A DNA stretch of 64,000 nt from a virus, in the IMG/VR virus record IMGVR_UViG_3300005264_000008, positions 1 through 64,000 of that record. One strand, written 5' to 3'. Shown here in pieces: positions 12,460-40,139 of the stretch. Position 1 is the first letter of the stretch. Each line of letters opens with the position of its first letter. The notes beneath the pieces were generated by a model that worked only from the letters and a program-made list of their open reading frames with translations, did no database searches and was not told where the DNA came from. The position numbers and the translations under genes were made by a program.

Positions 12460-13473
12460 TTATTTGATTTTAATTAAGCAATCATATACTACTTTAGGAA
12501 CTTCAATATATGAGTTGTTTTTGAAATATAGTATATATATCTTTTTAGCTTTCAATCTTTTTTCATATTCTATTTGTTTGGACATATCTAGTTTATGATG
12601 ATATAATCTATTAAATGCTGTTTCTCCACTTAATATTTTTTTATTGACAATTAAACCATTATTAATAATTGTTTCTAATGTCATTGTATCATTATCACCT
12701 AAAATATATTGTTTTTTTAATATTTTCGGTAATCGACCTTTAATAGTTGGTGACAAACTATCCCAATTAATATCATATGTTTTTTTAACATTTCGAGGAC
12801 GATATTCAAAATCGGGTCGGAATGATGAATTAATAGGGCAATTTATAAATATGTCCATTGAACTTTTTACATTACTAACATTCCATTTGGATATATTTTT
12901 ATTAAACATAGAATTAGAAAACATAAAATTCATATTTTTTACATTACTAACATTCCATTTGGATATATCACCGTTGAATAAACTTTCTTCAAACATACTT
13001 TCCGTATTAGTTACATTACTAACATTCCATTTGGATATATTTTTATTAAACATAGAATTAGAAAACATACCTTCCATGCTTTTTACATTACTAACATTCC
13101 ATTTGGATATATCACTATTGAAAACGGATTTGTCAAATACATGTTGCATATTAGTTACATTGCTAACATTCCATTTAGAAATATCACCATTAAATTTAGA
13201 CCTTGAAAACATACGTTGTATATTTTTTACATTGCTAACATCCCATTTAGAAATATTACCATTGAATGCACTATTCCGAAACAATTTAGACATATCAGTA
13301 ACACGACCAGTATCAATGAAATTTAAATCTACATTATTACCATGTTTTTTAATCGTTGATTCTACTAATTGCTTTAAATGTTTTGAATCTTTTGCTATTA
13401 TTTCGATGAAGTCACCATTCAAATATTTTTGAATCGAATCATTGATTATTTCTGTTAATTGTTTTTTTGTCAT
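12460..13473 (-). CDS. DUF285/BspA-type repeat protein with N-terminal leader
   Basis: About seven 22-aa FNxxISKWNVSNVxxM repeats; likely start ATG 13473 (MTKKQLTEIINDSIQKYL). Confidence 0.8.
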   Translation of the reverse strand: MTKKQLTEIINDSIQKYLNGDFIEIIAKDSKHLKQLVESTIKKHGNNVDLNFIDTGRVTDMSKLFRNSAFNGNISKWDVSNVKNIQRMFSRSKFNGDISKWNVSNVTNMQHVFDKSVFNSDISKWNVSNVKSMEGMFSNSMFNKNISKWNVSNVTNTESMFEESLFNGDISKWNVSNVKNMNFMFSNSMFNKNISKWNVSNVKSSMDIFINCPINSSFRPDFEYRPRNVKKTYDINWDSLSPTIKGRLPKILKKQYILGDNDTMTLETIINNGLIVNKKILSGETAFNRLYHHKLDMSKQIEYEKRLKAKKIYILYFKNNSYIEVPKVVYDCLIKIK

Positions 13474-13526: not shown

Positions 13527-14288
13527 ATGAAACAAAATATAAACGAAGTATCACATTTATTTGGAAAGGGTGATGTTGATGACGGACCTAAAATGTTTGA
13601 TGTAACATTAAAAAGTTATGAACGGAGAATTAACAGTATTGCCAAAATGCAAGGATTATCAGTAATTGATAATATGATTGGTAATAAAACAATAACAAAC
13701 TTTGACCCACAAGAATACAATCCAATTACGGATGTAACACAGTTTCCAAGTGGAATTGATACAGGTATTATTATGTCTACATTAGAAAATACGAAATCTT
13801 ATAAAGAATGGTTGAAGATTATAAAATTAATATTACAGCCATCTGATTTAGTAATGATTGATGATTTGGATGCTAATATGAGTATTGGTAATAATTTAAT
13901 TGAATCATATATTGAAAATATGTCTGATAAAATTTTCATTGATGAATTATATGATAAAAATAGTGGTATAATGTACGATGATGAGCAATCATTATCAATG
14001 TTATCGAATGTCATTAAACAAAAATATGATTTGGTACTAACATTCAATTCAAATAATGGGTATAAGTATAAAACACTAATTAATGATAAATCACATAAAA
14101 TAATTCGCAAAATGTTTGGTGAGTTTCCTAAAAATAGTGATGTTTATTTATGTATGAATTTTAATGAAGAGCGAAACGAAGTACAATTATTATTAGTAGA
14201 CGAAAACAAAAAAATTGTTAATAATTCACGAATAATTAAATTTGTACAATATAAAATGAGATGGACAGAAGATACAAATCTTTCATAA
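13527..14288 (+). CDS. Hypothetical protein
   Basis: 253-aa ORF, divergent from the DUF285 gene. Confidence 0.6.
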   Translation: MKQNINEVSHLFGKGDVDDGPKMFDVTLKSYERRINSIAKMQGLSVIDNMIGNKTITNFDPQEYNPITDVTQFPSGIDTGIIMSTLENTKSYKEWLKIIKLILQPSDLVMIDDLDANMSIGNNLIESYIENMSDKIFIDELYDKNSGIMYDDEQSLSMLSNVIKQKYDLVLTFNSNNGYKYKTLINDKSHKIIRKMFGEFPKNSDVYLCMNFNEERNEVQLLLVDENKKIVNNSRIIKFVQYKMRWTEDTNLS

Positions 14289-14293
14289 AGCAT

Positions 14294-14322
14294 AAAAATA
14301 ACGTCATATGGACGTTATTTTT
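14294..14322. terminator. Bidirectional terminator
   Basis: AAAAATAACGTC-ATATG-GACGTTATTTTT between convergent genes. Confidence 0.7.
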
Positions 14323-14383
14323 ATTTAATGGTTGTTCGTACCATTTAAACATTGAATGCTCTTATAATTGAAATTTCGATGTG

Positions 14384-14749
14384 TTATGATAATATAAATT
14401 CAATATAATCTTCAATATTATTATTAGTAGAATATTCAATTCGTAAATTAATAGAATGTTCATTACTATTAACAATTATATTATTTACTGATATATATGG
14501 CATATTATCTAGAAAGCAACGTTCAATTTCATCAGTGATATTTGATATTAATACATCATCACTTGTTTCAAAAATCATTTTTAATAAATCACATCCAAAA
14601 TTAGGATTCATTATTCGTTCTCCTTTATTTGTAAATAGTAGATTACGAATATTATCTTTAATTAAACTATCAGTTGTGTAATTTAATGCAAAAAATGTTT
14701 TATTATCAGTTGTAAGTGGAAGATTTAGCCCCAAACCTTTTTTTATCAT
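14384..14749 (-). CDS. Baseplate wedge protein gp25-like
   Basis: IRNLLFTNKGERIMNPNFGCDL motif. Confidence 0.9.
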   Translation of the reverse strand: MIKKGLGLNLPLTTDNKTFFALNYTTDSLIKDNIRNLLFTNKGERIMNPNFGCDLLKMIFETSDDVLISNITDEIERCFLDNMPYISVNNIIVNSNEHSINLRIEYSTNNNIEDYIEFILS

Positions 14750-15470
14750 GGTTTTTTAATATATATCTCTTTTCAATCGAAAAATAATAGTTTTTATAAA
14801 ATTTTGACCATGTAATATACCATGTTGGATGTGTATAATATCCACAATGTTTCATTTGTTTGAAAAAATCTTGATAACTTTTACAATTATGTAAACTTTG
14901 ATAACGAGGTCTTTCAAACATTGTCAATATATACTCAAAACTTTCAGCAACAGAATTAAATGATTTGAATTCATCATATAATACTACACGCACATCATCA
15001 ATATATTCTACAGTTGATAATGTTATTCCACGTCCTTTTATACCTGATACATTATTTGCTTTTAAAAATAATGTATTTGAAAATGGCACTCCTTTACTTG
15101 TAGATGTTTCTGTTTGTGCTAATGTTAACAGAATACCTGTTAATGTTATATCACTTACTTCATAATTACTTTTGTCAAACGATTTGACAATATCAAGTAC
15201 ACCTCTGTATAATAATTCATTTATAATCAATCTATCAGCATGTTTCCACTTAGTTGTTTTAATATGTTTAACAACCACAGTATCAAAAAATGCTTGCCTA
15301 TTGAAATGACTACTATAATGTTTTGGTGTTTTTAACTTGGTTGGTGGTGTGCTAATCGTATTACGACTAGAACTAATTAGAATAATAAATATAGCAGGAA
15401 TTAGTATAAATATACTTTTGAAGTATAAATTTACATTGCTAAATTTTATTCTATTGAATTTTAAATTCAT
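14706..15470 (-). CDS. GH73 glucosaminidase-like hydrolase with N-terminal TM segment
   Basis: AQTETS, ANNVSGIK, GYYTHPTW motifs; hydrophobic residues ~20-33. Confidence 0.65.
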   Translation of the reverse strand: MNLKFNRIKFSNVNLYFKSIFILIPAIFIILISSSRNTISTPPTKLKTPKHYSSHFNRQAFFDTVVVKHIKTTKWKHADRLIINELLYRGVLDIVKSFDKSNYEVSDITLTGILLTLAQTETSTSKGVPFSNTLFLKANNVSGIKGRGITLSTVEYIDDVRVVLYDEFKSFNSVAESFEYILTMFERPRYQSLHNCKSYQDFFKQMKHCGYYTHPTWYITWSKFYKNYYFSIEKRYILKNHDKKRFGAKSSTYN

Positions 15471-15526
15471 AAATATAATTTAGTGTTCTATAATAAATAT
15501 AATTTCGTTAATTTAAAATAAACAAA

Positions 15527-15793
15527 ATGAACGAAATTAAATTAAACAAAGACAAACTTGATAAATTAAAATCACTTCAGCGTGAAATAGATGTAAAAAT
15601 TTATACACTTGGTATAAAAAAATACGAAAAAGATGCAATAAATGTTCAATTTGACAATGAAATACAGAATATTACAAGTGTTATTAAGGCAAAAACTCGT
15701 GAGTATGAAACTGTAATTAAAGTCGAGCGTGATAAATATGGTGATTTTGATTTAGACTTACAAAATGGTACAATAAAATTAATAAAAAAATAA
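15527..15793 (+). CDS. Small coiled-coil hypothetical protein
   Basis: 88 aa ending KYGDFDLDLQNGTI. Confidence 0.55.
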   Translation: MNEIKLNKDKLDKLKSLQREIDVKIYTLGIKKYEKDAINVQFDNEIQNITSVIKAKTREYETVIKVERDKYGDFDLDLQNGTIKLIKK

Positions 15794-15794
15794 T

Positions 15795-16838
15795 ATGGGA
15801 TTGAATTTCGATGATATATTCAAGAAAATATCAGAAACAAATATTGGTATTAAAAAACGAATATTATTAATTGATGGTCATAATACATTTATGAGGGCAA
15901 TGTCAATGCAAAATATTGTGAATGATAATGGTGTTCATATAGGAGGATTGTCTGGATTTTTACTTAGTATAGGAAGTACATTAAAAAAGTTGAAACCTAT
16001 CCATGAAATTGTTATTGTCTTTGACGGAAAAGACACAATTAAATCAAGAAGAGAAATTTATGAAAATTATAAATTAAAAAAGAAAGATATTTCTCGATTT
16101 GGATTTTATAATGTGAAACAGGAACAAAATGCAATCAAATTTCAAATGGAACGTTTGTTTAAATATTTTGAATTTTTGCCTGTTCGTGTTATAATTGCAG
16201 ACTATGCCGAAGCAGATGATGTAATTGGATATATGGCATCAAATTATAAAGATTTTTTTGAAGATGTTAATCAGATATATATAATGTCAACTGATAAAGA
16301 TTATAAACAAAATTTAGTAAAAAATGATGATATTGAAATTAGTATTTTTGAACCATCAAAAAAGATTATAATTGATAAGGATACTTTCAAAACACAGTAT
16401 AATATGATACCTGAAAATTATACATTATTGAAGTGTTTTATTCGAGATGACGGTGATAATATACCAGGTGTATATGGCATTGGCGAAAAAACATTTGCTA
16501 AGTTATTTCCATTTGTATTGAATACGGATACAGTATTTGATATTAGCAGTTTTTTTGATGTAATAACACATGATGACATTTATACAAAAAGCAAATCAAA
16601 GAAAATACAAAGTGTATTACAACAACAGGACTTATTGAATATTTTTTATAAACTTGTAGATTTACGGAATAATAGTTTAAAAAATATTACATCTGATATG
16701 ATTGGTGATATTAAAATGATATTAAAAAAACCAGTTCCAATTACGAATAAATACTCAATATTACAATTAGCTACACAAGATGGTGTAATAAATTTTATTA
16801 AAAATCCTATTAAATGGGTGGAACAGGTATTTATATAA
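15795..16838 (+). CDS. 5'-3' exonuclease/flap endonuclease (T4 RNase H-like)
   Basis: LLIDGHN, VFDG, EADDVIG, STDKD and DNIPGVYGIGEKT motifs. Confidence 0.9.
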   Translation: MGLNFDDIFKKISETNIGIKKRILLIDGHNTFMRAMSMQNIVNDNGVHIGGLSGFLLSIGSTLKKLKPIHEIVIVFDGKDTIKSRREIYENYKLKKKDISRFGFYNVKQEQNAIKFQMERLFKYFEFLPVRVIIADYAEADDVIGYMASNYKDFFEDVNQIYIMSTDKDYKQNLVKNDDIEISIFEPSKKIIIDKDTFKTQYNMIPENYTLLKCFIRDDGDNIPGVYGIGEKTFAKLFPFVLNTDTVFDISSFFDVITHDDIYTKSKSKKIQSVLQQQDLLNIFYKLVDLRNNSLKNITSDMIGDIKMILKKPVPITNKYSILQLATQDGVINFIKNPIKWVEQVFI

Positions 16839-16874
16839 GAATGATTTAATTTACTTAATTAAAATAAAAACAAA

Positions 16875-17405
16875 ATGAAAATAGATATTGTTAATAAGTC
16901 GCTATTTGACCTTCCAAAATTTGCGATTAAGGGAGATGTAGGAATGGATTTATATGCAAATATAACTGATGAATGGTTAGATTTACAAAATATATCTGAT
17001 AATAATATTAGTTATATATCATTGAATAATAAACATAATGTAGCTGTTGACTTTTATAAGAAAAGTATATGGTTAGAACCTCGTGATAGAGTATTAATAC
17101 CAACTGGTATTCATATAGGACTGCCAACTGGATATGAAGCCCAAATACGAAGTAGGAGTGGGTTAGCATTGAAGTATGGTGTATGTGTATTAAATAGTCC
17201 TGGTACTATAGACAATGAATATACAGGAGAAATACAAATAATTATATATAATTCATCTAACCAACGATATGAAGTTCAATATGGTGATAAAATAGCACAA
17301 ATGGTTATTAAAAAATATGAAGATAATATTGAATGGGATTTAAAATCCACACTCACATCTTCAATACGTGATACTAATGGATTTGGACATACTGGTGATA
17401 AATAA
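16875..17405 (+). CDS. dut: Trimeric dUTPase
   Basis: GMDL, RSRSGLA, PGTIDNEYTGEI, GDKIAQ and GFGHTG motifs. Confidence 0.92.
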   Translation: MKIDIVNKSLFDLPKFAIKGDVGMDLYANITDEWLDLQNISDNNISYISLNNKHNVAVDFYKKSIWLEPRDRVLIPTGIHIGLPTGYEAQIRSRSGLALKYGVCVLNSPGTIDNEYTGEIQIIIYNSSNQRYEVQYGDKIAQMVIKKYEDNIEWDLKSTLTSSIRDTNGFGHTGDK

Positions 17406-17416
17406 AAAAATAAATT

Positions 17417-18067
17417 ATGATAAGTGAGAAACAAATTGTAGAAAATTACAATATTTATATTCAATTGTTAAAAAAAGTTACAACTGAAGAGCGTTATAAT
17501 AATATAATTAAATTATTAACATCTTTGAATGAAGAGCATGTTGCAACAGCACCTGCATCGGCAAAAAAACATTATCATGGTGCATATCATGGTGGATTGA
17601 TAGTACATTTGTTAAATGTATACACATTCGCAAATCAAATATATGAAATGTGGAAAATAAATGGCAGTGATTTGAGTGGTTATGATAAGAATGAATTATT
17701 ATTCACTGCATTAACACATGATATTGGAAAGCTTGGTACAGTTGGACAGCCGTTCTATATTTTACAAACAGATAATTGGAGACGTGATAAGTTGGGTGAA
17801 TTATATACATATAATCCTGACATAGCATTCTTACGACATAGTGATAGAACATTATACTTATTCCAAGAATTTAATATAAAATTAACTGAGAATGAATATA
17901 TTGGTATATACACACATGATGGATTGTTTGATGTTAAAAATGAAATTCATTTTAAATCATCGAATCCAAATCAATTATTCAAAACTAATTTACCATTTAT
18001 ATTACATCAAGCTGATTATATGGCTTATAGAATAGAAACAGAAAATGAACGAGATACTACAAAATAA
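17417..18067 (+). CDS. HD-domain phosphohydrolase (YhaM-like HD domain)
   Basis: APAS..HYHGAYHGGLIVH, HDIGK, HDG, LHQAD. Confidence 0.85.
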   Translation: MISEKQIVENYNIYIQLLKKVTTEERYNNIIKLLTSLNEEHVATAPASAKKHYHGAYHGGLIVHLLNVYTFANQIYEMWKINGSDLSGYDKNELLFTALTHDIGKLGTVGQPFYILQTDNWRRDKLGELYTYNPDIAFLRHSDRTLYLFQEFNIKLTENEYIGIYTHDGLFDVKNEIHFKSSNPNQLFKTNLPFILHQADYMAYRIETENERDTTK

Positions 18068-33704: not shown

Positions 33705-34010
33705 ATGGATATTCAAATTTTTATCGATGAACAAGTCGAAATGTTAAACAATGATTTTGGTACAGACCAAATTCAATGGAATATATACAGACTATTTTTC
33801 AAAGAATATATGCCAGACTTACCCCTTAATACAATAATTTCGAGATGTATGGAAGTTTATGCACAAATTATTAAAATCCATTCGGCTCAACCTTTATTTA
33901 AAGCTCTTGAAAAAGTTCAATTGCAAGTTGGTCAAATCGAACATAACTGGGATTATCAACAGAAAGAATATATGCCGTTTGTTATAAAAGCACTTACAGC
34001 TAACTTTTAA
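33705..34010 (+). CDS. Cassette-borne hypothetical protein
   Basis: Bounded by GTTAGCAAC (33664-33672) and its exact reverse complement GTTGCTAAC (34013-34021). Confidence 0.7.
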   Translation: MDIQIFIDEQVEMLNNDFGTDQIQWNIYRLFFKEYMPDLPLNTIISRCMEVYAQIIKIHSAQPLFKALEKVQLQVGQIEHNWDYQQKEYMPFVIKALTANF

Positions 34011-34014
34011 TTGT

Positions 34015-34146
34015 TGCTAACGGCTAACTTAATTGAACTGTTGCGACTTAACGCACAACGTAAATTAAAAGTAGTAAGTCCAAAAATAACACAGATGTAA
34101 ATTAACAGCATAATGTAAGCCTGTGAAATTCAAGCAAATGTTATGT
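34015..34146 (+). mobile_element. attC-like site
   Basis: TGCTAAC-GG...TTGAA...CTTA / TAAG...TTCAA...AT-GTTATGT; ends resemble the site at 33517. Confidence 0.7.
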
Positions 34147-34163
34147 GCTTAAATTTAAAAATT

Positions 34164-34721
34164 ATGATTAAAGTATTAAATTTATACGCAGGTATTGGAG
34201 GTAATCGAAAGTTTTGGAATAACTGTAATATCACTGCAGTAGAAAATGATAACCAAATTGCAGATAAATATAAACAGCAATTTCCAAATGATAAAATAAT
34301 TATTGATGACGCTCATCAATTTTTATTGGAAAATTATAAAGAGTTTGATTTTATTTGGTCAAGCCCCCCATGCCCAACTCATTCTCGAACTAATTATTTT
34401 CTAAATCCAAAAGGAATAATTCGATACCCGGATATGAAATTATGGCAAGAAATAATCTTTTTATCTGCATTTTTTAAAGGTTATTTCGTTGTTGAAAATG
34501 TAATAAGCTATTATAAACCTATTCTTAATCCGCAACAAATAGGAAGACATTATTTTTGGTCAAACTTCAATATCCCAAAAATAAAACAACCAACAAATGA
34601 CATTGGTAGAATGAATGGGAAAAATCAACCAGCATGTAAAAAACATAAAACTGAAAGAAATGCTGTCAATTCTGAATTAGGTTTACACATTTTTAATCAA
34701 TTTTTGGAAGTTAAAAAATAA
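34164..34721 (+). CDS. Short C5-cytosine DNA methyltransferase, cassette-borne
   Basis: LNLYAGIGG (motif I), SPPC (IV), ENV (VI); bounded by GTTATGTGC (34140-34148) and GCACATAAC (34754-34762). Confidence 0.8.
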   Translation: MIKVLNLYAGIGGNRKFWNNCNITAVENDNQIADKYKQQFPNDKIIIDDAHQFLLENYKEFDFIWSSPPCPTHSRTNYFLNPKGIIRYPDMKLWQEIIFLSAFFKGYFVVENVISYYKPILNPQQIGRHYFWSNFNIPKIKQPTNDIGRMNGKNQPACKKHKTERNAVNSELGLHIFNQFLEVKK

Positions 34722-34755
34722 AACAATCCAGCTATGCTGTCGCTATTTTAGTTGC

Positions 34756-34823
34756 ACATAACGAAAATGTATTTAAACTGAAAAATCTTTTTTGATTTTT
34801 TTGTTTTAAATACAATGTTAGGA
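34756..34823 (+). mobile_element. attC-like site
   Basis: ACATAAC-GAAAA-TGTATTTAAAC..AAAAATC / GATTTTT..GTTTTAAATACA-AT-GTTAGGA, 68 nt. Confidence 0.7.
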
Positions 34824-34909
34824 GCTTTATTTTTAGGCTTTTATCATTGTATCGGAAAATAAATAAAAGAAACTTGAAAAAAAAATTTTTTTATTCAAAA
34901 TAAGTTTTG

Positions 34910-34917
34910 TATCTTTG
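34910..34917 (+). promoter_or_regulatory. Bacteroidota-type -7 promoter box
   Basis: TATCTTTG upstream of ORF 34944. Confidence 0.55.
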
Positions 34918-34943
34918 TCATACTAAAAAGCAATAAAGCTGAG

Positions 34944-35540
34944 GTGAAAAAGGAAATTATGAGAAAGGAAATAAAATATAAAAATTATACAATCCTTTTA
35001 ATTAAAAATAAATACGGAAGCGGTCAAGTTCATTTTGATTATAATGGAACTAATTCAGCTACAAATTTTGGATTAAAAACTGCTTTTGAATTGTTTTCTT
35101 TTATTCACAATGAAGTTTTGAAATTTGCAAAGGAAAATCAAATTAATAGATTTTATACACAAGGAGCTACAGATGATGAAATAATAATAGCTCAAATTAA
35201 GGATATAAAAGATAATAATTTATTTGAATATCCTGAATATTTTTATTCAAATTATATTGATTTTGAATATTTAGGAAATGGGAAATATGAAGGATATGAT
35301 AAAGATGAAGATGAATTAATTACTTTAGATTGTGAAAGTAATATGTTTGATTTTGAGAATATGATAATGAATACGTTTAATGCTTATGAAAAAGTAGGAT
35401 TTGAATTATCAAACATCAAAACGAAAGCTGACCAAAGATTAAAATTATATGCTCGAATGATTTTAAAATATGATGGAGAAATAGAAGAGTTAAACATTCA
35501 AAATAATTATTTAAGTTTTTACATTAATAAAAAAAAATAA
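34944..35540 (+). CDS. Hypothetical protein
   Basis: 198-aa ORF. Confidence 0.6.
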   Translation: MKKEIMRKEIKYKNYTILLIKNKYGSGQVHFDYNGTNSATNFGLKTAFELFSFIHNEVLKFAKENQINRFYTQGATDDEIIIAQIKDIKDNNLFEYPEYFYSNYIDFEYLGNGKYEGYDKDEDELITLDCESNMFDFENMIMNTFNAYEKVGFELSNIKTKADQRLKLYARMILKYDGEIEELNIQNNYLSFYINKKK

Positions 35541-35544
35541 TATT

Positions 35545-35754
35545 ATGAAAAAATTAACAATAAAAGAATGTAATAATTTTATCACTTATATTCATAAAAA
35601 TGAAGAAAGTGTAATCTTAAGCATTGAAGAAAAAGATAATGCAATCGTAATAGTAATTAGTTGTGTTGATTTTTCAAATTTAACAACACACGAAAAAGAA
35701 TTAACTTTTACAGAAAAAGAGTTTAAAAATATTATTAAACAAATAAAACAATGA
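35545..35754 (+). CDS. Hypothetical protein
   Basis: 69 aa; ATGA overlap with the next gene. Confidence 0.55.
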   Translation: MKKLTIKECNNFITYIHKNEESVILSIEEKDNAIVIVISCVDFSNLTTHEKELTFTEKEFKNIIKQIKQ

Positions 35755-35934
35755 AAACATTAATCGTATTACCAGATACATTAGCAGTAGTAGCTAAAAA
35801 AACAAGGATTTACACCAAAAGGCTATTATTCTCAATCAGAAAAAGGTGCAAACGAAAATAAATACATTCTTTTGTTTTATGAAGGCGATGAATATTTACA
35901 GGAAATCCCAGACTTTTGTTATCTTTTATATTAG
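35751..35934 (+). pseudogene. Small gene frameshifted in an A7 run (35796-35802)
   Basis: MKTLIVLPDTLAVVAKK continues as QGFTPKGYYSQSEKG...LLY if one A is removed. Confidence 0.45.
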
Positions 35935-36058
35935 TATTATATATTGTTATATTAGTATCACATAAAAATTTAATATTTTTTAACAATTATTATATTAACT
36001 TTAATTTTTAAATTATGTTATTTATAGAATGGTAAAAAATAATACTACAATCGTTAAT

Positions 36059-36092
36059 GCGTGTCGTGAGTTCGAATCTCACGACACGCTCA
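36059..36092 (+). ncRNA. tRNA minihelix (acceptor stem + T arm only), Gly-like
   Basis: GCGTGTC-GTGAG-TTCGAAT-CTCAC-GACACGC-T-CA: perfect 7+5 bp stem with a canonical T loop. Confidence 0.65.
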
Positions 36093-36114
36093 GATTTTAA
36101 AATAAAACAAAAAC

Positions 36115-36185
36115 CCTACTGTAGTGTAATGGTAGCATCCATGTTTGTGGAACATGTAGTCCCAGTTCGAACCTGGTCAGTAGGA
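36115..36185 (+). tRNA. tRNA-His (GTG)
   Basis: Acceptor CCTACTG/CAGTAGG; anticodon arm CATGT-TTGTGGA-ACATG; T loop TTCGAAC; no encoded CCA. Confidence 0.85.
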
Positions 36186-36198
36186 CAAATATAATTAA

Positions 36199-36288
36199 GG
36201 AAGATTGACAGAGTTGGTAATGTGCCTGATTGCTAATCAGAGTCTTCGGTTAATAGCTGATGCGTAGGTTCGAATCCTACATCTTCCG
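36199..36288 (+). tRNA. tRNA-Ser (GCT)
   Basis: Acceptor GGAAGAT/ATCTTCC, G73; anticodon loop TTGCTAA; long variable arm; GTAGG-TTCGAAT-CCTAC. Confidence 0.92.
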
Positions 36289-36290
36289 CA

Positions 36291-36320
36291 AAAAAATCCC
36301 AAATAATTGGGATTTTTTTT
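36291..36320. terminator. Terminator after the tRNA cluster
   Basis: AAAAAATCCCAA-ATAA-TTGGGATTTTTT. Confidence 0.75.
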
Positions 36321-36398
36321 ATTATCTTGATGTTTAAAATGTTTTTTTAATTACGTTTATTATTATAAAAATCTAATTTATTAAACACTTTATAACAT

Positions 36399-39300
36399 AT
36401 GAAAAAATATTCGCACTCCACTGTACATGATGAAACAATGAAATATTTTGATAATGATGTATTAGCAACCGATGTATGGATGAAGAAATACGCATTGAAA
36501 GATTCCGATGATAATTATTACGAATTAACACCTGATGACATGCATCATCGAATAGCAAGTGAACTTGCACGTGTTGAAAAAAAATATCCTAACCCTATGG
36601 GCGAAGATGAAATATTTGAATTATTAAAAGACTTTAAATATGTCATACCTGCTGGTTCTAATTTATTTGGTATTGGCAATGATAAATATTTAACAAGTCT
36701 TAGTAATTGCTTTTATATACATCATGATAACAATGATAGTTATGGAGGGATAATGAAATTAGATGAAGAATTAGTTCACCTTTTCAAAAGAAGATGTGTC
36801 GAAGAAAATTCACATGTGATGACTTTAAATAATGGATTATTAAGAATAAAAAATATTACTAAAGGTGATATGGTGTTATCTTATAATACTAAAACCCAAA
36901 AATCCGAATATAAAAAGGTAATTGATAAATTTGATACTTTTGTTGATAAAGATGATAGAATAATAATAAAACTATCAAATGGAAGCCAATTAAAAACATC
37001 AAAAAAACATCCAGTTTTGACATTTTCTGAAATTGGAGAATATGTTTATAAAAATGCAGGAGATATACAAAAAGGTGATATTTGTATATCATCTTTGACT
37101 AAAAATAATTATAATGTTTATAATTTTGATAAAAAATTATCTGATATTGCATGGTTCACAGGACATCATCTGGGAGATGGTACATGTGGTAAAAATAAGT
37201 TACGTTTTAGAATATTAGGGGATAATGAAAAATGTATTGCAGAGTATGCATCTATTTTGAATGACATAACAGGCTCAACTGCAAAATATGGGTTATCTAA
37301 AAAGAAAGGTTATTTAGTTGATGTATGGGACTATACTAATAATAAAAAATCTTTAAACGATGTATTAGTTAGATATTTGGATAACCAGCGTGGAAAAAAA
37401 ACATATTCAATGTTTACTCCAAATTTTATAAAAAATAATAATTTATGGATACCTTTCATAGCAGGTTTAATAGATGCAGATGGAACAGTAACAGCAGATG
37501 GTAGATTATCGTTAACACTAACATCAAAAACAATGATAGATGAAATAAATTCTTATCTGTTATATAATGGTATCAGTTGTCATGTGAGTGTTAAGATTGA
37601 CAAACGCAATTCAAAATGGAAACCGCTTTATACATTACGATTTCATAAAGATGTTGAATTTTATTCTAATATATTAAAATATCTTATTCATGATAAAAAA
37701 AGACAACGTCTTATTGAAAATAAAATAACGGTTCATTCGTATAAAAGATTTATAACTGAAGAAGAACATAATGAAATGTTGAATAATTATAGTTCTAAAG
37801 GATTTTATAAATATAATAGAAACAACAAAGCACCAAAAGAATTTAATATTAAACGGAAACAATTGCAAAGTGCTATTGATACTGTGAAAGGTAATAATGG
37901 ATTAGGTATAAGTGCTTTAAATATACTGTTAAAACATGATATTATAAATAATGATAAGTATAATGAGATTAATCAACGTGTTTTTGTTACGAATGTAAGT
38001 ATAGATAATGATAGTTCTAAATATATTGATATTGAAGTCGATGGTAATCATAATTTTTATGCAGGTAATTTTGGCGGAATCGTAACTCATAATTGTGGAG
38101 TCGGAATTGATGTGTCATTTTTAAGACCCAAAAATTCTAAAGTTAATAATGCGGCCTTAACAACAACTGGTGCAGTGAGTTTTATGAATAGATTTAGTCA
38201 TACAACTGAAGAAGTTTCTCTTTTAGGTCGTAGGGCCGCACTAATGATTACAATGGATGTTAGTCATCCTGAAATTGAAGATTTTATTTCAATAAAACAA
38301 GATTTAACAAAAGTAACAGGGGCAAATGTATCAATTAAAATAACAGATGATTTTATGTTAGCTGTTAAAGAAAATAATGAATTTGAATTGAAATTTCAAA
38401 TGGCAGATAAGTCTTGGATAAGAAAAAAGGTAAACGCTAAACAGATATGGGACAAATTTATAAATGCAAGCTGGAATTCAGCCGAACCTGGATTGTTATA
38501 TTGGGATAAAATAAAAAGAGAATCACCTTCCGATGGTTACGAAGGGTTTGATTTACAGGGGGTTAATCCATGTTCTGAATTAACGCTATCAGATTCAGAG
38601 AGTTGTAGATTAACATCTATTAATTTAACTGCTTTTGTTAAAAATAGTTTCACTGAAAAAAGTATGTTTGATTTTGAACAATTCAAAAATGTAGCGATTA
38701 AAGCTCAGAGATTGATGGACGATATAACTGATTTAGAAATAGAAAAAATAAATTCGATTTTACAAAAAATTGAACAAGACCCTGAGAATGCCGATGTGAA
38801 ATTTAGAGAAATTTCCTTATGGAAAAAAATATTAGATAAAGCAACTGATGGTAGACGTTCAGGATTAGGTATAACTGGATTGGCTGACATGTTAGCAATG
38901 CTCGGATATACATATGGAACACACGAAGCAACTTCATTTTCAGAAAAAATATTTATAGATTTAGCAAAATCGTCATATGAATCTTCAATAAACATGGCTA
39001 AAGAAAGAGGAGCTTTTAAAAATTGGTCAATTGATAAAGATAAAAAAAGTGATTTTATAAATAGATTATTATATGAAACCATAGACTCAGACGTTTTTGA
39101 ATTATATAAAAAATATGGTCGTAGAAATATCGCAAATTTAACAATTGCACCAAATGGGTCATTGAGTTTATTGAGTAAAACATCATCAGGTGTTGAACCT
39201 GTTTTCATGGTTAAACATAAAAGACGAAGAAGAGCAACAGAAACAGATTCAGTTGATTTCATTGATGATGTTGGTAATAAATGGAAAGAATATCTTGTAT

Positions 39301-40139
39301 TTCATCCTAAGTTCGAAGAATGGTTTAATAAAAATAATACTAATAAAAAACTAAAAGATTTAACAGAAAGTGAAATAGATGATATTATAACAAAATCTCC
39401 ATACTATAATGCAACAGCACAAACGATAGATTACATAGAAAAAATTAGGATGCAAGGAATCATTAATAAATGGATAGACCATAGCATTTCAATGACTGTT
39501 AATTTACCAAATAATATAACCAAAAAACAAGTGTCAGATTTATATATGAAAGGTTGGGAATATGGTTTAAAAGGAATGACTATTTATAGAGATGGTTCAC
39601 GTTCGGGTGTATTAGTTGCAACTGATTCTAAAAAAGAAGTAACACCAGATAGACCAAAAGAAATACCATGTGATATACATTATATTCAAGCAAATAAGAT
39701 AAAATATTATGTTATAGTTGGTTTAGTTAATGACAAACCATATGAAATATTTGCATTTGAAAAGAAACATATTTCAATACCGCAAATTAGAAAAGATGGT
39801 AAATTAATAAAAGTTAAATCAGGTATGTATAATTTAAAATATAATGGTACTGAAATTGAAAATATTGCTCAACATTTTCAATCACCACAAGAAGATGGTT
39901 TTACTCGAATGGTATCATTATTATTAAGACGTGGAAATTCAGTAGCAGATATAACAGAACAAATTGATAAATCATATAGTGCTATATCAGGATTTTATAA
40001 AGCAATTTCACGAGTATTACGTAAAAATTATACTTCAGATGGTAAAATAGACGAAAAATGTCCGCAATGTAATGCTAATTTAGTAATGAAAGAAGGATGT
40101 AAATCATGTCCTGCATGTGGATTTGAATTTTGTGGTTAA
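36399..40139 (+). CDS. nrdJ: Class II (AdoCbl-dependent) ribonucleotide reductase with intein
   Basis: SLSNCF, NPCSE, GLGITGLAD, TIAPNGS, GMTIYRDGSR; C-terminal TSCPD-like region and Zn ribbon. Confidence 0.9.
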   Translation: MKKYSHSTVHDETMKYFDNDVLATDVWMKKYALKDSDDNYYELTPDDMHHRIASELARVEKKYPNPMGEDEIFELLKDFKYVIPAGSNLFGIGNDKYLTSLSNCFYIHHDNNDSYGGIMKLDEELVHLFKRRCVEENSHVMTLNNGLLRIKNITKGDMVLSYNTKTQKSEYKKVIDKFDTFVDKDDRIIIKLSNGSQLKTSKKHPVLTFSEIGEYVYKNAGDIQKGDICISSLTKNNYNVYNFDKKLSDIAWFTGHHLGDGTCGKNKLRFRILGDNEKCIAEYASILNDITGSTAKYGLSKKKGYLVDVWDYTNNKKSLNDVLVRYLDNQRGKKTYSMFTPNFIKNNNLWIPFIAGLIDADGTVTADGRLSLTLTSKTMIDEINSYLLYNGISCHVSVKIDKRNSKWKPLYTLRFHKDVEFYSNILKYLIHDKKRQRLIENKITVHSYKRFITEEEHNEMLNNYSSKGFYKYNRNNKAPKEFNIKRKQLQSAIDTVKGNNGLGISALNILLKHDIINNDKYNEINQRVFVTNVSIDNDSSKYIDIEVDGNHNFYAGNFGGIVTHNCGVGIDVSFLRPKNSKVNNAALTTTGAVSFMNRFSHTTEEVSLLGRRAALMITMDVSHPEIEDFISIKQDLTKVTGANVSIKITDDFMLAVKENNEFELKFQMADKSWIRKKVNAKQIWDKFINASWNSAEPGLLYWDKIKRESPSDGYEGFDLQGVNPCSELTLSDSESCRLTSINLTAFVKNSFTEKSMFDFEQFKNVAIKAQRLMDDITDLEIEKINSILQKIEQDPENADVKFREISLWKKILDKATDGRRSGLGITGLADMLAMLGYTYGTHEATSFSEKIFIDLAKSSYESSINMAKERGAFKNWSIDKDKKSDFINRLLYETIDSDVFELYKKYGRRNIANLTIAPNGSLSLLSKTSSGVEPVFMVKHKRRRRATETDSVDFIDDVGNKWKEYLVFHPKFEEWFNKNNTNKKLKDLTESEIDDIITKSPYYNATAQTIDYIEKIRMQGIINKWIDHSISMTVNLPNNITKKQVSDLYMKGWEYGLKGMTIYRDGSRSGVLVATDSKKEVTPDRPKEIPCDIHYIQANKIKYYVIVGLVNDKPYEIFAFEKKHISIPQIRKDGKLIKVKSGMYNLKYNGTEIENIAQHFQSPQEDGFTRMVSLLLRRGNSVADITEQIDKSYSAISGFYKAISRVLRKNYTSDGKIDEKCPQCNANLVMKEGCKSCPACGFEFCG
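36795..38093 (+). mobile_element. Intein with LAGLIDADG homing endonuclease (433 aa)
   Basis: Starts CVEENS after FKRR; TSKKHP block B; FTGHHLGDG and FIAGLIDADG; ends IVTHN before C(+1)GVGID. Confidence 0.92.

Follow-up and report, generated by a model that had tools for sequence, protein, structure and literature searches.

A minihelix-like hairpin at the head of a phage tRNA cluster is most likely a defective allele, or an artefact, of an ordinary tRNA gene

The tRNA cluster of a virus recovered from a marine-sediment metagenome opens with a hairpin that has the acceptor stem and T arm of a tRNA and no D or anticodon arm. We find that this hairpin most likely belongs to a known class of object: it goes back to a normal tRNA gene, of which it is either a defective allele or an artefact. 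The reading that we prefer, at a probability of roughly 0.55, is that it represents a real deletion allele, left over from an ordinary class-I tRNA gene whose acceptor end was glycine-like. That it derives from a full gene, and did not evolve as a minihelix gene, is in our judgment highly probable. The evidence that carries this conclusion is a second assembly of the same locus, in which additional bases separate the acceptor strand from the T stem. The record concerned (IMG/VR IMGVR_UViG_3300005264_000008) comprises 82,228 bases with a GC content of ~25% and is estimated to be 39% complete. Its first 64,000 nucleotides are the stretch of DNA that was analyzed, referred to here as the window, and positions are those of the window unless stated otherwise.

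The hairpin and the tRNA cluster that it heads

Read directly, the letters of 36059-36092 are GCGTGTC-GTGAG-TTCGAAT-CTCAC-GACACGC-T-CA. They form 12 Watson-Crick pairs with no mismatch, 7 of them acceptor-like and stacked on 5 that are T-stem-like (Table 1), and the 7-nt loop, TTCGAAT, corresponds to the T-loop consensus; GTTCGAA is found at the corresponding place in both neighboring tRNAs (His and Ser). In the window allele, the 5' strand of the acceptor directly abuts the T stem, and the tRNA features that can be recognized are the 7-bp acceptor stem, the 5-bp T stem, which carries G53:C61, the T-loop TTCRANY, and an unpaired N73. Pairing stops exactly at 1:72 because the next facing letters are T36058 and T36090, so that N73 is unpaired and CA comes directly after it. 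In the MFE and the centroid structure of 35990-36115 alike, the hairpin is the dominant element (z = -4.28), and it occurs a single time in the 82,228-base record. When ~1.17 Mb of phage DNA was scanned on both strands for a perfect 12-bp stem with a TTCRANN loop, it was the only such case, all remaining candidates having one or two mismatches together with several G-T pairs. As a sequence feature of the record, the hairpin is thus confirmed and is not a product of chance. Its initial annotation as a 7-bp acceptor stem plus a 5-bp T stem, with neither D nor anticodon arm, is exact at the level of sequence, and neither of the two standard tRNA searches responds to it: ARAGORN makes no cloverleaf call at the hairpin, and RF00005 gives no match even at E up to 10. 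The sole Rfam score obtained there is that of a tmRNA T-arm fragment, at 12.9 bits.

Table 1. Elements of the hairpin and of the tRNA cluster downstream of it, in window positions
Feature	Position	Strand	Basis
Acceptor-stem 5' strand, tRNA positions 1-7, GCGTGTC	36059..36065	+	Read directly; pairs perfectly with 36083-36089
Deletion junction; 43 more bases here in the Logan contig of run X1	36065..36066	+	Contig alignment
T arm: stem GTGAG (36066-36070)/CTCAC (36078-36082), loop TTCGAAT (36071-36077)	36066..36082	+	Sequence and fold
Acceptor-stem 3' strand GACACGC (36083-36089), discriminator T36090, CA 36091-36092	36083..36092	+	Read directly
tRNA-His (GTG), next after the hairpin	36115..36186	+	ARAGORN; Rfam tRNA 51.4 bits
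tRNA-Ser (GCT), last gene of the cluster	36199..36289	+	ARAGORN; Rfam tRNA 56.2 bits
Intrinsic terminator closing the tRNA cluster	36290..36319	+	13-pair stem, then T run

The cluster runs from the hairpin through 25 nt to tRNA-His, and from there through 12 nt to tRNA-Ser and the terminator; the 25-nt spacing reported earlier for the interval upstream of tRNA-His agrees with this arrangement. Upstream of the cluster are small ORFs, a C5 methyltransferase, and a PD-(D/E)XK nuclease, and downstream is a class II ribonucleotide reductase (RNR) interrupted by a LAGLIDADG intein. The terminator that closes the cluster is the sole terminator-like site in 35500-36500, where 0.2 would be expected. 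The hairpin itself was also considered as an intrinsic terminator, and this was rejected, since its tail, TCAGATTTTAAAA, has no T run and the terminator scan is silent there.

The ending N73-CA had been described as common to the hairpin and both full tRNAs. It is indeed present in tRNA-His and tRNA-Ser, and across the whole record in six of eight tRNAs (His, Ser, Val, Lys, Asn, and Glu), so that the 3' trailer of the hairpin is one that normal tRNA genes of this phage carry. Taken together, the canonical T-loop, the end of pairing at 1:72, and an N73-CA trailer like that of other tRNAs identify these as features of a tRNA gene. A hairpin with a role in termination or processing and no tRNA origin would fit a GC-rich stem that stands in an AT-rich spacer, ~300 nt past the preceding ORFs. 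Such a hairpin would, however, have to account for a loop that is exactly TTCGAAT and for pairing that halts at 1:72 with N73 and then CA as in real tRNAs, and the 43-nt difference in the second assembly fits a tRNA; we regard this explanation as extremely improbable.

Several further observations concern the tRNA genes of the record. The presence of CA, not CCA, directly after N73 in the hairpin and in six of the eight tRNAs points to a common signal for 3' processing or repair. In tRNA-His (36114-36186), C stands at -1, residue 73 is A, and the acceptor starts with C1:G72, which leaves no encoded G-1:C73 pair. Bacterial tRNA-His normally encodes G-1, and the molecule specified here would need either post-transcriptional addition of G-1 or a G-1-independent HisRS. 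The six further tRNAs of the record, none of which is for glycine, lie at 80.6-81.8 kb. They make up a second cluster outside the window, on the minus strand at record positions 80624-81794, with Arg(ACG), Val(TAC), Arg(TCT), Lys(TTT), Asn(GTT), and Glu(TTC); the Arg(TCT) call, which is 88 nt long and whose acceptor starts with TATAATT, looks doubtful or contains an insertion.

A second assembly of the locus

Sequencing runs were searched with 169 sampled 31-mers of window 35300-36900, and the Logan contigs of matching runs were aligned to window 34000-38000. Run X1, the best match, which was flagged as a possible source of the record, contains 0.98 of the 169 sampled words; if only the 30 of 1571 31-mers that span the junction were absent, the predicted share would be 0.981. 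The X1 contig that covers the locus is 17,847 nt long and has a depth of 26. It aligns to the window in two pieces, window 34117-36065 to contig 15899-17847 and window 36065-38000 to contig 13921-15856, both with 0 mismatches and 0 gaps. Between the pieces lie 42 unaligned letters and letter 36065 is counted twice, which gives 43 extra nucleotides. The comparison thus sets 3927 nt of the X1 contig against 3884 nt of the window, with no other difference over 3.9 kb, and the extra bases are located exactly at 36065/36066, between the 5' strand of the acceptor and the T stem. The k = 31 contig path connects phage-specific sequence on either side of the junction, which places the long form in this phage and not in another organism. 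The X1 contig therefore contains the ~40 nt that are missing from the record at this junction, a finding that the initial annotation had itself named as refuting a functional minihelix. The contig pieces listed for runs X2 and X3 lie outside 36059-36092, and the comparison of alleles is that with X1. Contigs drop rare variants and show presence, not absence, of a sequence, so X1 may hold both alleles. Among the runs listed, none that holds the locus is an RNA run.

The size and placement of the extra bases are those of the central part of a tRNA. Positions 8-48 of a tRNA are usually 43 nt long. Of 106 phage tRNAs that ARAGORN called, 65 have a body of 39-43 nt between positions 7 and 49, a range into which 43 fits, and the ends of the insert as aligned (first letter not G, last letter C) are compatible with U8 and C48. 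The X1 allele has a total length of 75 nt without CCA. Judged by length and position, the 43 nt would be a tRNA body between positions 7 and 49 of the full-length allele, and we infer that they would comprise the D arm, the anticodon arm, and the variable loop (positions 8-48). The full gene would accordingly be taken as the ancestral state, as judged from one alternative assembly. The opposite polarity, in which the minihelix is the older form and the 43 nt in X1 are an insertion that has nothing to do with a tRNA body, such as a small mobile element or hairpin element, draws what plausibility it has from the fact that length and position are what identify the 43 nt as a tRNA body. For an insertion to have hit precisely the point between helix positions 7 and 49, at precisely the length of a tRNA body, is nevertheless very unlikely by chance, and we consider this account very improbable.

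The same contigs yielded two observations on other parts of the region. At the terminator (36303-36306), other contigs of X1 and X2, with depths of 10-14, match its hairpin with loop insertions of 2-4 nt, from which it follows that the terminator sequence recurs elsewhere, either in the phage or in co-occurring genomes. The X1 contig ends at 34117, within a region of repeated hairpins where several short, divergent contigs stack (34000-34150), as expected for a dispersed repeat.

Deletion and artefact as origins of the short form

The initial annotation had offered, as one of two possibilities, a precise deletion of a tRNA gene through GTC microhomology. The precise loss of a tRNA body is supported by the 43 nt found at 36065/36066 in X1. 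The microhomology is not: C36065 is the single letter that can be assigned to either side of the joint, and GTC was rejected as the agent of the deletion. A random deletion within the 75-nt gene would match positions 8-48 about once per few thousand events, and the exactness of the deletion, taken alone, might suggest selection. The structure of a tRNA gene offers another route to the same endpoints. Acceptor positions 1-7 together with T-stem positions 49-53 constitute the left arm of an inverted repeat, split in two by the tRNA body, and positions 61-72 constitute its right arm. Quasipalindrome template switching renders imperfect inverted repeats perfect and eliminates insertions in one arm: the nascent strand folds back on itself, uses its own arm as a template, and then resumes on the original one (PMC7202029).

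Our best guess is that, before the loss, a tRNA gene headed a small cluster (X-His-Ser-terminator) in a large, AT-rich phage and that its body was lost in vivo by an intramolecular template switch of this type. The nascent minus strand, having copied positions 73 to 49, would fold on its own T hairpin, copy its own GCGTGTC into GACACGC, and then re-pair perfectly with positions 7-1 of the template. The product of such a switch would be exactly the sequence of the window, that is, an interrupted inverted repeat made perfect. As a template switch would account for the exact endpoints, there is no need to invoke function or selection. The resulting short allele could not decode and, if transcribed, would give at most an inert hairpin of ~35 nt processed by RNase P and CCA addition. 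The mutations described as quasipalindrome template switches (Ripley 1982; Lovett laboratory; PMC7202029) resemble the present case in the perfected repeat, the removal of an insertion from one arm, and the exact prediction of endpoints. In documented cases, however, few bases are removed, whereas 43 nt would be lost at this locus, which makes the comparison an extrapolation.

Whether the short form exists in the phage or only in the record is a separate matter. Because nothing else distinguishes it from the long form in 3.9 kb, the short form must be of very recent date or else have no biological existence. It is possible, although we hold it to be the less likely course of events, that the living phage has the full-length gene only and that the short form arose technically, through a switch during library amplification followed by a jackpot or through the building of the IMG/VR record; there would then be no natural minihelix gene. 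The Logan contigs of the possible-source run hold all but the junction words, and the same template switch is possible in vitro. In addition, the protein set, with an identical RNR, is present on a 235,805-nt contig of another assembly, which makes the 82-kb record one of several assemblies. Set against this is the shortness of the repeat: GCGTGTC-GTGAG and the reverse complement of CTCAC-GACACGC have 12 nt in common, too few to mislead a de Bruijn assembler at k of at least 21, which suggests that junction reads existed in the library of the record. On the same ground, the inverted repeat was rejected as the cause of a de Bruijn mis-join. Further, PCR chimeras normally occur at far too low a rate to end up as an assembled path, and the record may derive from another sample, one dominated by the short allele. 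A real deletion allele is therefore favored over a technical artefact, and we infer that the short allele exists in vivo rather than in the record only.

These results carry a caution for the interpretation of virus records derived from metagenomes, since an apparent "natural minihelix" vanishes as an evolved feature once it is set against a second assembly from the same sample. Indels at tRNA genes that are seen in a single record should be checked against reads before a function is proposed. Since every tRNA gene contains an interrupted inverted repeat in its acceptor and T arms, a single template switch can turn it into a perfect minihelix. Should alleles of this sort prove real and viable in phage populations, they would offer a ready supply of anticodon-less tRNA mimics, an idea that matters only if the short allele reaches appreciable frequency in read-level data.

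Glycine identity, relatives, and the functional reading

The hairpin carries G1:C72, C2:G71, G3:C70, and U73, and its position 4:69 is U:A. The identity set of bacterial tRNA-Gly consists of G1:C72, C2:G71, U73, C35, and C36, and one alpha2-beta2 GlyRS, that of L. plantarum, prefers a purine 4:pyrimidine 69 pair and depends on the arms and on a complete L-shape (PMC10464925). In the hairpin, the pair in question is U4:A69, and with neither D nor anticodon arm the L-shape is incomplete. The glycine identity assigned to the hairpin at the outset thus stands for the acceptor end (G1:C72, C2:G71, G3:C70, and U73) and lapses for the anticodon determinants C35 and C36, which the window allele does not contain. 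With a bacterial tRNA-Gly gene it has in common a 7-bp acceptor stem with G1:C72, C2:G71, and G3:C70, the residue U73, and the T-loop TTCGAAT; with an ordinary class-I tRNA gene it has in common its place in a tRNA cluster, an N73-CA trailer like that of its neighbors, and the length of the X1 allele. It differs from an ordinary tRNA-Gly in that the window allele is without positions 8-48 and has U:A at 4:69, and its likeness to tRNA-Gly is that of the acceptor end.

Searches for similar hairpins and for relatives of the phage covered viral, genome, and metagenome contigs. An exact search with the 3' half of the hairpin gave no match in viral (IMG/VR), genome (GTDB), or metagenome (JGI) contigs, the exact contig searches leaving out the record itself. 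No relatives were found with either a 198-aa neighboring protein or the C-extein of the RNR. An RNR alignment in viral contigs reached at best 48-49% identity, and a comparable hairpin was present in none of the 80 loci; in metagenome contigs, an RNR alignment of three sequences yielded six distant loci. When the 56%-identical RNR of the nearest relative, which comes from a 168-kb contig, served as query against viral contigs, two loci were obtained, neither with tRNAs, and blastn against phage records matched only generic tRNA-Ser and RNR sequence. A minihelix architecture with compensatory changes was thus found neither in the independent assembly, X1 having the long form, nor in relatives, no kin having been found. 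Finally, a scan of all of IMG/VR for GCG-N8-GTTCGAATC-N8-CGC returned 99 loci, nearly all of which are the 3' parts of ordinary tRNAs.

The only other perfect case of that scan, locus L173, was rejected as a minihelix, being an 18-bp palindrome after the end of an integrase-like gene. The palindrome (minus strand, 12705-12747) is perfect and reads GTTGGA-GCGAGCG-AAGGG-TTCGAAT-CCCTT-CGCTCGC-TCCAAC; in it, the 3' end of a tRNA (T arm, acceptor strand, U73, and CCA) is paired with an exact antisense copy of itself, which runs on beyond the CCA. Placed directly after the end of the integrase-like ORF, it looks like an att-type site.

These data also bear on the proposal that the short allele is a selected, functional minihelix, kept in part of the population and giving rise to an anticodon-less, CCA-tailed RNA. 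Such an RNA might act as a decoy for toxins that read the acceptor stem (toxSAS FaRel2/CapRel, GNAT, or MenT-type) or as a non-ribosomal carrier of glycine. The transcription unit with the tRNAs and the terminator appears intact, and G1-C72, C2-G71, and Pu5-Py68 are all present. FaRel2 pyrophosphorylates tRNA-Gly minihelix, of which a synthetic version is an efficient substrate, and reads G1-C72, C2-G71, G4-C69, and Pu5-Py68; toxSAS act in antiphage defence (10.1101/2024.07.05.602228). The hairpin, however, has three of these four FaRel2 determinants and thus an incomplete set, with U4-A69 in place of G4-C69, and one bacterial GlyRS favors Pu4:Py69 and requires a complete L-shape (PMC10464925). 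The full-length allele in the same strain makes the short form days to years old and leaves it with no record of conservation, no relatives carrying the hairpin were found, and the single other perfect case in the IMG/VR-wide GCG...GTTCGAATC...CGC scan is the att-like palindrome. The exact endpoints, moreover, are explained without selection. On balance, we judge a selected minihelix to be improbable.

The evolved anticodon-less mimic of the initial annotation, whether a decoy or a non-ribosomal Gly donor, is accordingly not sustained, given the full-length allele in the X1 contig and the lack of conservation. Equally doubtful is the more specific scenario in which the short allele would be a real variant, co-transcribed with tRNA-His and tRNA-Ser and matured to a CCA-tailed decoy of ~35 nt that is proof against anticodon nucleases; this, too, we think unlikely. 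A decoy role for the hairpin RNA is conceivable and at present unsupported. Were the short allele to act as a decoy, the template switch would provide a one-step route from a tRNA gene to such a molecule.

Acceptor-T minihelices are substrates of RNase P, of the CCA-adding enzyme, and of some synthetases, and synthetic ones were reportedly described by Francklyn and Schimmel in 1989. The hairpin is like synthetic acceptor-T minihelices, such as the tRNA-Gly1 minihelix (10.1101/2024.07.05.602228), in its 12-bp architecture and N73. Those molecules are laboratory constructs, whereas the hairpin is known from DNA alone, is without G4-C69, and has no encoded CCA. The tRNA-like domain of tmRNA is likewise an acceptor/T-arm mimic recognized by tRNA-processing enzymes, but it is conserved across lineages, whereas the hairpin differs from the full-length allele of its own strain. 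With tRNA pseudogenes and truncated remnants, the hairpin shares its descent from a tRNA gene, its inability to decode, and its lack of any sign of conservation; such remnants, however, are usually 5' or 3' fragments (for instance, att-site copies) or decayed, whereas the hairpin has an internal deletion and a perfect coaxial acceptor/T helix.

Two protein-coding regions on either side of the cluster deserve mention in their own right. The class II (B12-dependent) RNR occupies 36399-40139, and its intein, with the LAGLIDADG homing endonuclease, measures ~415 aa; identity of the RNR is 56-59% to its closest intein-free homologues and ~45% to cellular (Bacteroidota) ones. At 35751-35934, a small ORF begins in an ATGA overlap with the stop of a 69-aa ORF and is 37 codons long, and just past an A7 run at ~35796-35802 the next frame continues as a protein-like reading of 42 aa, GFTPKGYYSQSEKGANENKYILLFYEGDEYLQEIPDFCYLLY; this arrangement could reflect a frameshift, a sequencing slip, or programmed slippage.
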